Shown in pieces: positions 6,233 to 63,318 of a stretch of DNA of 64,000 nt. The stretch lies in the NCBI GenBank assembly GCA_012295275.1, contig CM022667.1, positions 6,014,001-6,078,000 on the forward strand, read 5' to 3'. Position 1 is the stretch's first letter. Each line of letters begins with the position of its first letter. A program made the translations under genes and the position numbers. Below the pieces are notes generated by a model that saw nothing but the letters and a program-made list of their open reading frames with translations, searched no databases and was not told where the DNA came from. The DNA comes from Chrysomallon squamiferum (Eukaryota > Animalia > Mollusca).

Positions 6233-6342
6233 TCAACCTGTGTCTTGTGAGTTTTCATAGACAGTGAGTACAGAATATGGTGAGTCTTTTCTAGCTTCCA
6301 GTGATGAGTAATTGTTTGTAGTGTCTGTGTTTCTGTCAGTAT
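6233..6342 (-). CDS. Gene B terminal cytoplasmic exon with ITAM-type motif
   Basis: DTDRNTDTTNNYSSLEARKDSPYSVLTVYENSQDTG*; CAG acceptor at 6343-6345. Confidence 0.8.
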
Positions 6343-9300
6343 CTGAAACATAATCTTGATTATACAGTTACACAGAATATAATTATACTAACAGTATAAA
6401 AAAGTAAAACAGGAAGTAACACAGTTTGTTCTCGCTGTACTTGAGATCACTAATAATATTTAAAATAATAACTTATATGTTGTGTTGTGTTATTTTATTT
6501 TGTTTGTTTGTTTGTTGTTGCTTTTTTAATTCGGACAAATTACACTTCATAAGCAAATTAAAGACAATAAATGTTAATATAAAACATAAACAATGTATAC
6601 TTCTACTGATTATTTTCCTTTATTTCAAAAATATCAGCTAAATCATAAAAACAAATGAAGTGTAAACATTTATTATTATGATTTTTTTTTATTTTTTTTT
6701 TGTAGATTTACCACTTTATTCTTTACCACAATTCCTGATCAGATCCTTCATGTGTTAGTTATTTAATATTAGAACAATAAAATAAGACTTTGTACTTTAG
6801 GTATGTCTCAGTTATTCTGAAAAAAAGACAGCAGACACACAGCATGTCTCTGATTTAACAGGCAGCATCACAGAAACTCTTTAATCTGTTACACTTTTTA
6901 TTTAGATACTGACCTTGACTTTGTTGAAGATCGTCATATAGAGGTGATTCCTGCACTCCAGTGTTAAACTGTCTGAAACAAACAAAATAGAGAACTCAAG
7001 AATTACTGAATTTTGGTTTATTTAATCTATTTCACATCTGTGTGTATGTACGGGCATGAATACCTATGTGTGTATAGTTTTTCGTCCGTAATAAGTTATT
7101 TTCTTTTCCAAATACCCTTTTGACTAATTAGCATAATATGTATTGTTCAGTTAAAGGGAAAACGACTTACACATTGTGTTTCTATTACTTCCGCACATTT
7201 TCATAGCTTACCTTGATGTGTACGTGTTTTCACTCTTAGACTTTTCTAAAATAAAAATATTCAGAATATTAGAAATGCGAAATAACTCTTATTAATATTT
7301 GTTTATAAATGTTACTTCTTTGTTTTGACAAACAGAATTTATACTATTAAAAACGTTGAGAGAACGAAGCAAAGCACAGTATTCATTATTTGTAAAATAA
7401 TGTTTTCAGTTTCCTTGTAAAGTTCACCTTTTCTCTTCCAGCAGAAAAAGAAAACGATTGCCCCAATGAAAAGTTCTATTCCCAGTACTATTCCAATTCC
7501 AATACCAATTCCTGTTCCTAGTAAACCGAAGTTTTCTTGCGAACATTCTGAAGATTAAATAAATGAAAAAGAACGTGTAAATATCCTATAAAATATACAG
7601 CAAGTTGGTTTCAGATAATACATTTTTAATTTATCTGTCTATTAATCTGTGGTTGTGTGTGTGTGTGTATGTATGTATATGTATATATATATATATAAAC
7701 ACACACACGCTCATATATATGTGTATATATATATGTTTATCTGTGTATATATATGTGTGTGTGTGTGTGTGTGTGTGTGTGTCTGAATATATATATATAG
7801 ACAGATAGATAGATACCTATACAAAAATTACACATATACTGTGTTAGCTGAGATTTATTACGATAACAAGCAGGGTATTTTTAAACTCTCCAGTATAGTT
7901 GTTTATTCGTGTTCTACATTAATAACTTTGTAAATGAAGATTCATAGTTGCACGAATCAGTTAGAAAACATAAATTCACGTTGTTGCTTTCTTACCATAG
8001 ATTATAAGATGCTGTTCATTCGTTGAGATTTTGAATCCAAATTCATTAAAAGATAAAACTCGAATCAGATATCTGGTGTTTGGTTGTAAACTAGAAATCT
8101 CTGCTGTGTGACTGGTGTGAAGACCTTTTTCACCAAACTGTTCAGTGAGATTTGTCCACTCAGATGTTGTGTCTGCTCGATACTGTACAAGAAATGTTTC
8201 TTGTGATCCTCCATTAAATTCTTCTGTCCAAGACACTGACACTGAATGTGGACCAGTACTCCAAGTTCTCACGCGTTAGGGAACAGTTGGAGGACCTTCA
8301 AGTTTAAAACGTTACAAAATATTGAAAAACAGAAACTAGTGAACAATCAATTTTGTTTAAATACTATTGATATTATGCAATATCTATCTATCTGCCTATT
8401 TTCAAATAAGGATATACATAATGATCAGAAAATCAGTATTTCAGACACAAACGTTGCTATATTTCAGCACATAATATAAATGAAAACATCTGAAACTGTA
8501 ACAGTAGGTCTAAGAAGATATTTTTCATACCAACTCTATTTTTACCTCTTTGACTGAGAGATAAATTCAAGACAAGATCCTTCCTTGAACCTCCATTTGA
8601 CACAGCAACCTGATAGATTCCAAAATCTTCTTGGTTAACATTTGTCAGTTTATATTCACCTACAGCAGACACATTTGTAGTGTTTACAGGTTGTGTAGAT
8701 CCAAGACTTTTATTGTTTACATCTGTGAGTTTATACCAGGTAAATGTTGGAACTGGATTGGCAATCACAGAAATATGTAGAGTTACATTTCCACCTTCTG
8801 CAGAAGCAAATTTTTTCTGAACTTTAACTCGATGATCAAGTCTTGGTGAACCTGATAAAAGTCAATCTAGTGATTACTTTTATCAATAAGGATTGTATCC
8901 AAAGAATTACTTGTACATACGGATTGATTATTTGTGTCAACACTAAAATCCAGATACATCTATCTATCGATCTCTCTCCCTTTCTATCTGTCTATCTATC
9001 TATCTACATATATGTAGTAAAAACATAACTAAAATAAATAAATAAATAAATAAATAAATAATAATAATAATAATAATAATAATAATAATAATACTTAAAT
9101 GTTTTACCCTCTACACTGACCATTAATTCTAGTTCAAGATGACATTTCCGGTGAAATGTAAAGCGGAGAACATAACATAAAGAAAACTGATAGAAGCTGT
9201 TTAGTTTGGTCCACTATTTGCAGGGAACTAGTAGGCCCCATCACATAATTTTGACAAACATGTCAAACCTTGAAGTATGACATTTCAGAAACTATTCATG

Positions 9301-60655: not shown

Positions 60656-63318
60656 TCAACCTGTGACTTGTGAGTTTTCATAGACAGTGAGTACAGAATA
60701 TGGTGAGTCTTTTCTAGCTTCCAGTGATGAGTAATTGTCTGTAGTATCCGTGTTTCTGTCAGTATCTGAAACATATTCTTGATTATACAGTTACACAGAA
60801 TATAATTATACTAGTAGTTGTAACAGTATAAAGAAGTAAAACAGTAAGTAACACAGTTTCTTCTCGCTGTACTAGAGATCACTAATAATATTTAAAATAA
60901 TAACATGTGTTGTGTTATTTTATTTTGTTTGTTTGTTTGTTGTTGCTTTTTTAATTCTCACAAATTACATTTCATGAGCAAATTAAAAGCAATAAATGTT
61001 AATATAAAACATAAACAATGTATACTTCTACTGATCATTTTCCTTTAGTTCAAAAATATCAGCTAAATCATAAAAACAAATGAAGTGTAAACATTTATGT
61101 TTATTATTTTTTTTAATTTTATTTTTTTTGTAGATTTACCGCTTTATTCTTTACAACAATTACTGATCAAATCCTTTATATGTTAGTCATATAATATTAC
61201 AACAATAAAATAAGACTTTGTACTTTAGGTATGTCTCAGTTATTCTGAAAACAAAGAAAGCAGACACACAGCATGTCTCTGATTTAACAGGCAGCATCAC
61301 AGAAACTCTTGAATCTTTTACACTTTGTATTTATATACTGACCTTGATTTTGTTGAAGATCGTCATACAGAGATGATTCCTGTACTCCAGTGTTAATCTG
61401 TCTGAAACAAACAAAACCCTGAGAACTCGAGAATTATTGAATTTTGGTTTATTTAATATATTTCACATCTGTGTGTGTGTACGTGCATGAATACCTATGT
61501 GTGTATCGTTTTTGGGCCGTAATAATTTCTTTTCTTTTCCAATTACCCTTTTGACTAATTAGCATAATATATATTTTTCAGTTAAAACAAAAACAACTTA
61601 CACATTGTGTTTCTATTTCTTCCTTAAATTTTCATAGCTTACCTTGATGTGTACGTGTTCTCACTCTTAGACTTTTCTAAAATAAAAAATAAATATTCAG
61701 AATATTAGAAATGCGAAATAAATCTTATTCAGATATGTTTATATATGTTACTTCTTTATTTTGATAAAGAAAATTTATAATATTAAAAATGTTGACAGCT
61801 CAAAGCAAAGAGCATTATTCATTATTGGTTATACAAATTTGTTCAGTGTACTTGTAAAGTTTACCTTTTCTCTTCCAGCAGAAAAAGAAAACGATTGCCC
61901 CAATGAAAAGTTCTATTCCCAGTACTATTCCAATTCCAATACCAATTCCTGTTCCTAGTAAACTATTTTTTTCTTGCGAAAATTCTGAATATTAAATAAA
62001 TGAAAAAATATATTAGACATGTACAGTATTAGCTGAGATTTACTATGATAAGATGCAGATTACTTTTTATGTAAACAATTACAAACACACCAGTATAGTT
62101 GTAAATTAATCACTTTTCAGATGAAGGTTCATTGTTGCACGAATCAGTTCGAAAACATGAATTCAGGTTGTTTTTTTATTACCATAGATGAAAAGATGCT
62201 GTTCATTCGTTAAGGTTTTGAATCCAAATTCATTAAAAGACAAAACTCGAATCAGATATCTGGTGTTTGGTTGTAAACTAGAAATCTCTGCTGTGTGATT
62301 TGTGTGAAGACCTTTTTCACCAAACTGTTCATTGAGATTTGTCCACTCAGATGTTGTGTCTGCTCGATACTGTACAAGAAATGTTTGTTGTGATCCTCGA
62401 TTAAATTCTTCTGTCCAAGACACTGACACTGAATGTGGACCAGTACTCCAAGTTCTCACATCAGAGGGAACAGTTGGAGGACCTTTGAGCTTAAATATGT
62501 TGACTGCATTTATAATTTTGCTTTGATAAATCTTTTCTGAAAATGTCCCATCTTGTGGCAAAGAGAATGAGGAAATGTTATCAAGGGTTTGAAAAAGAGA
62601 TGCAAATGCTAAGCAATTAATAAATATTATCAGGCAGCTGAAAGTTACTGACTAGCTGACAGCAAAAACAAAATGATAATAAAATAAAACAATTAAAACA
62701 AAACTATTATTTAGATTTTTTTCACTCAAGGCAGATAGCTAAACATTAAAAAGTGTAACACCAAAGAGTAAAATTAAGCTTGAAGCTGAAAAGTAAGAAT
62801 CTGTTAATTGATTAAAACATGCAGCTGTTTAGTAGGTACTTCCGAAAACTTTATAATAAAAATATATATTTAGTACGTATAAACAAAATAATATATATAA
62901 AGTAAATAAATATTTTTCCTCTGTCTATTAATATTGAACTTGATCAAAAGGAATTCATTTCTTGTTTTAAAATAATAATAATAATAATAATGTACAAGTT
63001 TGATGTTTTTACCTTCTGCAGTAACACTTAGTTTTACAAAAAGATCTGTTCTTTTTTCCCTGTTTGACACAACCACCAGATACATTCCAAAATGTTCTTG
63101 TTTGACATTTGTCAGTTTATATTCACCAGCAGCAGACACATTTGTAATGAGTATAGGTTGTGTAGATCCAAGACTTTCAGTTTTTACATCTGTGAGTTTA
63201 TACCAGGTAAATGTTGGAACTGGATAGGCAATCACAGAAATGTGTAGAGTTACATTTCCACCTTCTTCAGCAACAAATTTGTTCTGAAATGTAACTCGAT
63301 GATCCAGTCTTGGTGAAC
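60656..63318 (-). CDS. Gene E (3' part): I-like Ig-FN3-TM-ITAM tail, open throughout; 5' exons lie beyond the window end
   Basis: Exons 63013-63318, 62183-62482, 61865-61984 (TM ...GIGIGIGIVLGIELFIGAIVFFFCWKRK), 61643-61676, 61343-61401, 60656-60765 (DNYSSLEARKDSPYSVLTVYEN); no stops found. Confidence 0.85.

Follow-up and report, generated by a model that had tools for sequence, protein, structure and literature searches.

Shared ectodomain exons ahead of predicted ITAM- or ITIM-type tails in a partly decayed Ig/FN3 gene cluster of Chrysomallon squamiferum

The stretch of Chrysomallon squamiferum DNA analyzed here (64,000 nucleotides of contig CM022667.1, positions 6,014,001 to 6,078,000, referred to below as the window) holds a tandem cluster of genes, labelled E, D, C and B in their order of transcription, in which shared exons for immunoglobulin (Ig) and FN3 domains precede one of two predicted tail modules, carrying either an ITAM (immunoreceptor tyrosine-based activation motif) or inhibitory motifs (ITIMs). 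We consider it probable, though well short of certain, that the family represented here is one of paired immune receptors, of which two local copies, B and C, are interrupted by stop codons and a third, D, has a likely frameshift. On our best reading, the window is a decaying part of the cluster of a family that has repeatedly been rewired by recombination. A sequence-only reading of this DNA had proposed a candidate paired-receptor locus; at the level of the family this claim now appears stronger than first proposed, while for C and D as working receptors it falters on two stops in C and the likely frameshift in D.

Tail modules and shared ectodomains in the window

Paired receptors are defined by similar extracellular regions, with an ITIM in one member and an ITAM route in the other (PMC3533184; here and below, published systems are given as the accessible portions of the cited texts describe them). 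In the window, both are seen at the level of motifs, in genes that follow one another on the minus strand within 57 kb. B, C and E have in common a Gly-rich transmembrane (TM) segment, GIGIGIGIVLGIELFIGAI, and a last exon encoding YSSL-EARKDSP-YSVL-TVYEN, while D has an unrelated Val/Leu TM segment followed by VLYAVV (35795-35778), LVYTEV (34463-34446) and TVYIQT. The sequence-only reading had described both arrangements, and the exon map, the shared exons and the located motifs bear it out. Among the window genes, a strict ITIM pattern is found in D alone and an ITAM in B, C and E alone; when the tails were shuffled 20000 times, an ITAM arose in 0.3% and at least two ITIMs in 0.4% of the shuffles. 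The ITAM-gene tail is 71 amino acids (aa) long with its own ITAM and follows a TM segment with a Glu in all three genes (TM exons 7428-7547, 18198-18317 and 61865-61984), unlike the KIR/LILR/PILR type of activating form, which has a short tail and a basic TM residue. An acidic rather than basic residue thus sets the activating type of the window, known here from its sequence, apart from vertebrate paired receptors. At other positions, an acidic TM residue is present in 7/26 ITAM-class vs 0/8 ITIM-class relatives; as it is missing from the YSSL orthologues of the snail Gigantopelta aegis, we regard it as a mere hint and not as a marker of the class. Dual coding of the last exon of D was also rejected, since a second frame as open as the one found there turned up in 13% of the shuffles of its codons and in 23% of the resamples with synonymous codons.

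The ectodomains of C and D share a block of 3.9 kb (45164..49060 in D, 20580-24488 in C) that is 95.3% identical, introns included. The third V exon of C and the V exon common to D agree in 358/363 nucleotides (nt) and 119/120 aa, the intron between V and C2 in 245/245 positions and the first C2 exon in 255/255 nt and 84/84 aa. They are followed by an intron (738/759), the second C2 exon (244/255 nt, 90.5% aa), the intron before the fourth Ig exon, Ig4 (1150/1198), and Ig4 itself (267/279 nt, 90.2% aa). Beyond the block, the I exon agrees in 274/306 nt (81.2% aa) and the FN3 exon in 266/300 nt (83.8% aa), such that identity in the later exons falls from 96% to 89% nt in the 5'-to-3' direction, and the introns around I and FN3 diverge strongly (274 vs 2419 nt ahead of FN3). 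The extracellular regions are therefore highly similar, although the earlier description of essentially one V-C2-C2-Ig-I-FN3 ectodomain holds for V and the first C2 and is too strong for the exons that follow. As the shared tract holds introns, plain unequal crossing-over accounts for it equally well. V2 and V3 of gene C agree in 362/363 nt and three C2 exons in 255/255, while the V domain of gene B is of a second class, with 17-21% aa identity to the C/D V.

The V domain is predicted to adopt a V-set fold (pLDDT 93.9), and the best Foldseek matches of the model are antibody VH domains (TM score about 0.75). In the four distinct V copies, 21/23 variable residues fall within the BC-to-C''D span or F-G (60/120 residues) vs 5/10 synonymous-only codons (Fisher p 0.016), with the span having been defined after the data were seen. 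The V differences thus sit on the CC'C''FG side of the modelled domain, and we count this as support at the family level. The pairwise ratio of non-synonymous to synonymous differences (pN/pS) lies near 1 for the I exons, with values of 0.89-1.09, and for V it spans 0.55-1.22 in all but one of the six pairs; as it is not consistently above 1, it does not show positive selection on V.

Relatives of the two tail types and the lineage of the ectodomains

A search with one FN3 exon returned 13 matches, all of them proteins of the vent snail G. aegis (53-72% identity), which points to a close kinship with that species. A profile built from 11 G. aegis proteins yielded 87 matches, 50 of which come from that species. 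Four of these (P0018, P0019, P0027 and P0033) combine a YSSL-x7-YDVL tail with the TM segment of B, C and E, and seven present a second ITAM class, YEGL-x7-YAKM. For the TM segment and tail of E, the alignment has a z of 53 with P0019 and of 52 with P0018. The D-type TM exon has its counterpart behind the FN3 of P0032, on which it scores 81 vs 57 for the runner-up among the 87 proteins; the P0032 model ends just past this exon. The tail of D aligns to Mya arenaria P0056 and P0052 (z 11.5 and 8.6; 0/1000 shuffles). A wider search over 1.84 billion representatives, of which the best 150 were taken, gave 25 further proteins with FN3 followed by TM. In four of these the tail follows the D type, with YAVVxK, L(V/I/L)YxxxxF (present in three) and TxYxxxDF/L/EF in succession, and a fifth shows this pattern in part; full or partial carriers include Haliotis cracherodii, Mizuhopecten, Mya and Potamilus, and ITAM-type relatives were found in each of the first three as well. 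Conservation of the tyrosine motifs among homologs had been set beforehand as a test, along with a search for both tails in relatives, and both motif sets indeed recur: G. aegis has a counterpart for each of the TM/tail types, and the ITIM-type tail is found in abalone, scallop and clam. The two tail modules predate the split from G. aegis and the ITIM-type module is shared with bivalves, so that, from these matches, the family is probably mollusc-wide.

As the sequence-only reading had expected, the public relatives carry automatic and inconsistent names: proteins of G. aegis, Haliotis, Mizuhopecten, Pecten and Mya listed as nephrin-, hemicentin-, syg-2-, DSCAM- or CEACAM-like are actual homologues with the Ig4-I-FN3-TM core, and none of the annotations flags two tail classes. 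Five G. aegis proteins (P0023, P0043, P0038, P0042 and P0060) have the same Ig/V domains with short, tyrosine-poor tails and no FN3 ahead of the TM segment, and these may form a third, non-signalling class.

Trees of the I and FN3 domains were built from 32 rows each, with P0006 and second domain copies excluded. The window genes B, C, D and E form one clade in both (95/98 for I, where the bootstrap was not fully settled, and 100/99 for FN3), and a single clade of the eight YSSL-tail rows is rejected (p-AU 0.0135 for I and 3.4e-5 for FN3). Joint descent of tails and ectodomains would group the YSSL-tail genes of both snails; as such grouping is rejected, the ectodomains group by lineage and not by tail type. 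Within G. aegis, the identity between P0032 and P0003 is 87% in I and 92% in FN3; the TM segment of P0003 is of the YEGL class, and no tail is annotated for this protein. In a 37-row molluscan tree of Ig4-I-FN3, one clade of ITIM-type rows is rejected (p-AU 1.8e-6) and the ITIM label needs 6 changes, with 47/500 shuffles needing as few; this tree drew long-branch warnings, and its tail labels are based on motifs. Rejection of tail-type monophyly agrees with ectodomains being kept alike by recombination or conversion, the C/D tract not being restricted to exons.

In Mya, the identity between ITAM-like P0150 and the ITIM protein P0221 is 64-85% up to residue 600 and about 30% past residue 700, near the membrane. 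For two ITIM proteins, P0145 and P0052, the figures are instead 13-33% up to residue 700 and 55% at the end; a pair in Mizuhopecten is weaker (43-60% in the middle). The intact models of Mya P0145/P0221 (ITIM) and P0150 (ITAM-like), with their shared N-terminal ectodomains, are an independent candidate pair.

Integrity, transcription and rival explanations

Several features had been overlooked in the sequence-only reading, namely the stops in B and C, the frame of the D TM exon, the triple V-C2 of C, the two V exons and 89-nt exon of D, and the TM Glu. Gene B has one in-frame stop, TAA 8278-8276 in FN3, and gene C has two, TGA 20818-20816 in Ig4 and TAA 18013-18011 in the first tail exon; all three are substitutions outside homopolymers. 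Read from its canonical acceptor at 36926, the 134-nt TM exon of D stops inside the hydrophobic stretch. It is in frame solely from an AAG acceptor at 36903, which has 32% pyrimidines and 5 upstream AGs and is the weakest of 41 acceptors scored. The TM exon of P0032 starts A-GEEP, which resembles the A-EEAG that D reads from the canonical acceptor, and a frameshift is therefore favoured. A scan for another in-frame TM exon (41128-37600 and 37500-35830), which recovered those of B, C and E, gave one low-complexity, Phe-rich candidate and nothing convincing. D as assembled is thus likely frameshifted and, because of this and the two stops in C, the named C/D pair is probably dead in this assembly. 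The visible 3' half of gene E has no stops and is the sole clean copy.

RNA was available as contigs from three metatranscriptomic runs of one study, sharing 3-4% of the query words, and was mapped to 33200-37500; we infer its source organism from an exact match to the last exon of D. This match, an 82-nt contig ending at the acceptor, is found in 3/3 runs. Further contigs are 85-99% alike to the exon and differ in their 3' ends, such that several D-type genes appear to be transcribed. In one variant, found in 3/3 runs, a phase-1 exon end is spliced in frame into the LVYTEV exon (by hand translation of loose ends) and, in one contig of run X1, a TM-exon-like end joins a VLYAVV exon in frame (again by hand translation). 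The contigs also revealed the 89-nt exon at 34835-34747, which resembles the IYEN segment of Mya tails. In the RNA, its junction with the last exon (34747-34835 to 34283-34495) puts the latter in a tyrosine-free frame, and this may represent an ITIM-removing isoform like CEACAM1-S or a contig-level artefact. No use of the CAG immediately before LVY (34464), which would preserve the frame, was seen in contigs over 33200-37500. The RNA check proposed earlier for the predicted junctions thus bears out the splicing of D-type tails and the last-exon acceptor; no contig over D's own TM exon, which lies partly in a skipped repeat, was found in the mapped stretch, which is no evidence either way, and none joins FN3 to it, in a stretch that does not hold the FN3 exon.

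A number of points weigh against paired receptors and should be considered together. With B and C stopped and D probably broken, function of the named pair cannot be demonstrated from this assembly, where C and D are not both intact and expressed partners. The loose ITIM pattern of the sequence-only reading also matches the ITAM tails (SPYSVL in B, C and E; SLYDxL in C and E), so that its assignment of the two motifs stands on the strict pattern and the rarity in shuffles. None of the 50 G. aegis matches has a full-length ITIM tail, and a protein search with the last exon of D gave 2 candidates and no match. The 89-nt exon joins the last exon in phase 0 in 3/3 runs, leaving LVYTEV out of frame, and the RNA sample is limited to a single study. 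The C/D block, with its introns, differs from the exon-restricted conversion of Xenopus ceacam pairs, and the pN/pS values are compatible with relaxed constraint. The cautions given above for the V span and the molluscan tree belong here as well.

Some of these points also speak for birth-and-death debris, in which two old receptor types came to lie in one array and unequal crossing-over made chimeras, with no selection for pairs and with the C/D identity as a by-product in dying genes. The three stops and one likely frameshift across three of four genes, the conversion tract with introns, pN/pS near 1, the truncated V starts that accompany orphan signal-peptide exons at 4818 and 59071, and, within D, a decayed transposon together with a 3' copy out of its place all fit such a history. 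It is nonetheless unlikely in our view, although to be taken seriously: in G. aegis and Mya, too, genes of different tail type have ectodomains in common, each of the two tails is conserved across species, RNA of several paralogues contains spliced D-type tails, and amino-acid changes cluster on one face of V while synonymous ones do not.

An assembly artefact, in which the stops, the triple V-C2 and the near-identity of C to D would all stem from merged haplotypes or mis-joined repeats, could be suspected from the near-identical V and C2 copies, but we find it very improbable, as the copies differ by degrees, from 100% down to about 75%, the I and FN3 exons of D still group with those of B, C and E although 81-84% identical to those of C, the same pattern is found in the annotations of other species and the stops are substitutions outside homopolymers. 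The build of several Ig domains, one FN3 and a TM segment, and database names such as nephrin-, syg-2-, turtle- or DSCAM-like, would suit a non-immune role in adhesion or wiring, like that of nephrin, Sidestep or Neph, with the tyrosine motifs serving to bring in Nck, SHP2 or Src-family kinases during development or in an epithelium. Orthologues of nephrin, hemicentin, DSCAM and Sidestep are, however, conserved and low-copy with a fixed domain count, Sidestep having the same count of 5 Ig and FN3 (the likeness to Sidestep is one of count, with no direct comparison made). Here, 50/87 matches are paralogues of a single species that vary in domain count and bear many inconsistent names, copies turn over rapidly in tandem within the window, variation is CDR-like, and oyster receptors of like build are described as haemocyte-enriched and Vibrio-responsive. 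Such a role is thus quite improbable.

Locus layout and place among known receptor systems

The window has a GC content of 29%. In total, 43 exon boundary pairs were fixed across its genes (Table 1), and Pfam backs the Ig and FN3 assignments, with FN3 in all four genes; for the V exon of gene B, the Pfam scan returned no family. The exon order is signal peptide (SP), V, C2, C2, Ig4, I, FN3, TM and tail in B; SP, three V-C2 units, C2, Ig4, I, FN3, TM and tail in C; and SP, V0, V, C2, C2, Ig4, I, FN3, TM and tail in D. For gene E the window holds the 3' half only (I, FN3, TM and three tail exons), the 5' half lying beyond it.

Table 1 Positions of the exons in the window, by gene
Feature	Position	Strand	Basis
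Gene A (further gene), SP exon; gene leaves window at left end	1215..1290	-	blastn to C and D SP exons
Gene B, SP exon	14066..14126	-	ATG, hydrophobic, phase-1 GT donor
Gene B, V exon, second V class	13576..13884	-	exon map; tblastn 48% to G. aegis P0019
Gene B, C2, C2, Ig4, I exons	11560-11300, 10725-10468, 9770-9492, 8851-8546	-	Pfam Ig, exon map
Gene B, FN3 exon, in-frame TAA 8278-8276	7996..8295	-	Pfam, exon map
Gene B, TM exon, Glu in TM	7547-7428	-	exon map
Gene B, tail exons, last with YSSL-x7-YSVL	7245-7212, 6972-6914, 6342-6233	-	exon map
Gene C, SP exon	29670..29712	-	exon map
Gene C, V-C2 unit 1	27274-26912/26679-26425	-	exon map
Gene C, V-C2 unit 2	25693-25331/25085-24831	-	exon map
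Gene C, V-C2 unit 3	24100-23738/23491-23237	-	exon map
Gene C, C2, Ig4, I, FN3	22477-22223, 20997-20719, 19597-19292, 19017-18718	-	Pfam, exon map
Gene C, TM exon	18317-18198	-	exon map
Gene C, tail exons, last with YSSL-x7-YSVL	18036-18003, 17761-17703, 17160-17051	-	exon map
Gene D, candidate SP exon, weak donor	55662..55737	-	
Gene D, first V exon (V0)	53203..53565	-	exon map
Gene D, V, C2, C2, Ig4	48670-48308, 48062-47808, 47044-46790, 45580-45302	-	in block common with gene C
Gene D, I, FN3 exons	44153-43848, 41428-41129	-	Pfam, exon map
Gene D, TM exon	36793..36926	-	best match among 87 proteins is G. aegis P0032 TM exon
Gene D, tail exon 1 (VLYAVV)	35717..35824	-	exon map; paralogous spliced RNA contig
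Gene D, additional exon in the tail (89 nt; phase 1 into phase 0; FEDKHIYGN...)	34747..34835	-	RNA contigs, 3/3 runs
Gene D, last exon (LVYTEV, TVYIQT)	34314..34495	-	82-nt exact RNA contig, 3/3 runs
Gene E, I, FN3	63318-63013, 62482-62183	-	exon map, no stops
Gene E, TM	61984-61865	-	exon map, no stops
Gene E, tail exons, last with YSSL-x7-YSVL	61676-61643, 61401-61343, 60765-60656	-	no stops

Around these genes, relics of two more genes lie at 4733-4841 and 58985-59095 on the minus strand, each an orphan signal-peptide exon of the B type ahead of the truncated start of a V exon. The stretch 1-5372 is a segmental duplicate of 54357-59621 (79-95%), from which the repeat unit would cover the 3' end of an ITAM gene and the 5' region of the next. 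A decayed DNA transposon piece at 49060-50450 (minus strand), which we take to be hAT-like from the motifs GFTDWKNA, ADETTDVS, YVHC and ETRW, adjoins the shared C/D block on the D side; a Pfam scan of its three open reading frames found no family. After V0 of D, at the place expected for a C2 exon, 52200-52930 copies, at 80-83%, the sequence that flanks the ITAM genes on their 3' side. The 5' region of D also holds minisatellites of 47, 20 and 114 bp (51925-52162, 54437-54613 and 56027-56248).

Among vertebrate systems, Xenopus ceacam pairs undergo exon-restricted conversion that homogenises their ectodomains (PMC5112662). Both these and CEACAM1/CEACAM3, the vertebrate paired receptors whose logic comes nearest, resemble the window in having clustered genes with similar ectodomains and an ITIM or ITAM in the gene's own tail (PMC3533184, PMC5112662), as well as in N-terminal homogenisation, change on the CC'C''FG face and pseudogenes. 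The window differs from CEACAM pairs in its five or more Ig domains plus FN3, its tract with introns and four exons, and the single strand of all its genes. CEACAM proteins consist of V and C2 domains without FN3; given FN3 in 4/4 genes and weak CEACAM matches (24-34%), the window genes are not placed among them.

Among invertebrates, the Hydractinia Alr proteins combine Ig and FN3-like folds with ITAM or ITIM tails amid many pseudogenes (10.1101/2022.03.04.482883; 10.1101/2022.03.25.485889), and alr2 (ITIM-like) and alr2B/C (ITAM), with their similar ectodomain exons, are already pair-like. They are like the window in being an invertebrate cluster of V/I-set Ig, FN3-like and TM segments, and unlike it in their 1-3 unusual Ig domains and shown allorecognition role; this likeness is drawn by description, with no direct sequence comparison, and no Hydractinia name is found among the 87 profile matches. 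The Botryllus fester co-receptors, FcoR, have ITIM or hemITAM tails with motif switching by splicing (PMC12582321). These too form an invertebrate Ig-superfamily multigene cluster, although they are chordate co-receptors beside ligand-binding FF genes, with hemITAM rather than full ITAM. In the oyster, CgIgR has five Ig domains, a TM segment and an ITAM and binds Syk (PMC6994640), and CgNCAM1, with three Ig, one FN3, TM and two ITIMs, binds SHIP2 (PMC11841013) and has, by description, the build of gene D. Both are described singly and not as a paired, recombining family; for CgIgIT/CgIgIT2, a review passage and a paper title conflict on an ITAM vs an inhibitory role. The novelty that the sequence-only reading implied is thus reduced by these published receptors, but a literature search, thin for the subscription journals that hold much oyster immunology, found no family in molluscs that combines a shared ectodomain with either kind of tail.

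If the family does consist of paired receptors, unequal crossing-over or gene conversion would repeatedly transfer the N-terminal block from one gene type to the other, and an activating and an inhibitory form might then see the same ligand, bound by the CC'C''FG face of V. Once phosphorylated, YxxL-x7-YxxL would recruit Syk or Shark, and SHP2 or SHIP would bind the YAVV/LVYxE/TxY tail, as the oyster proteins CgIgR and CgNCAM1 suggest by analogy. Partners that are intact would lie elsewhere in the cluster, with gene E as a candidate ITAM member, and the family may read microbial or self surfaces, perhaps on haemocytes or in a symbiont-facing epithelium; an immune or allorecognition function is something that we can only infer. 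A bolder view is that of a molluscan counterpart of vertebrate leukocyte-receptor/CEACAM clusters, overlooked so far, in which one Ig-n/FN3 family had its ligand-binding ectodomains rewired between activating and inhibitory tails independently in vent snails, scallops and clams. Its two tail modules would predate the divergence of gastropods from bivalves, its ITIMs would be switchable by splicing, its activating forms would recurrently carry an acidic TM residue, and it would be the main candidate for telling self or symbiont from pathogen. We offer this tentatively and doubt it more than we believe it.

As most of its copies are broken, the window serves mainly as a pointer to the family. 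Paired receptors are known in vertebrates and, among invertebrates, in the Hydractinia and Botryllus allorecognition loci, while for molluscs only single oyster receptors were found. A gastropod-to-bivalve family listed under misleading automatic names supplies named candidates (among them XP_041379401.1 and XP_041373842.1 of G. aegis, XP_071095565.1 and XP_071094638.1 of H. cracherodii, and XP_052803513.1 and XP_052805576.1 of Mya) with which to approach open questions, such as how vent snails tolerate symbiont bacteria and why bivalves fail to reject transmissible cancers.

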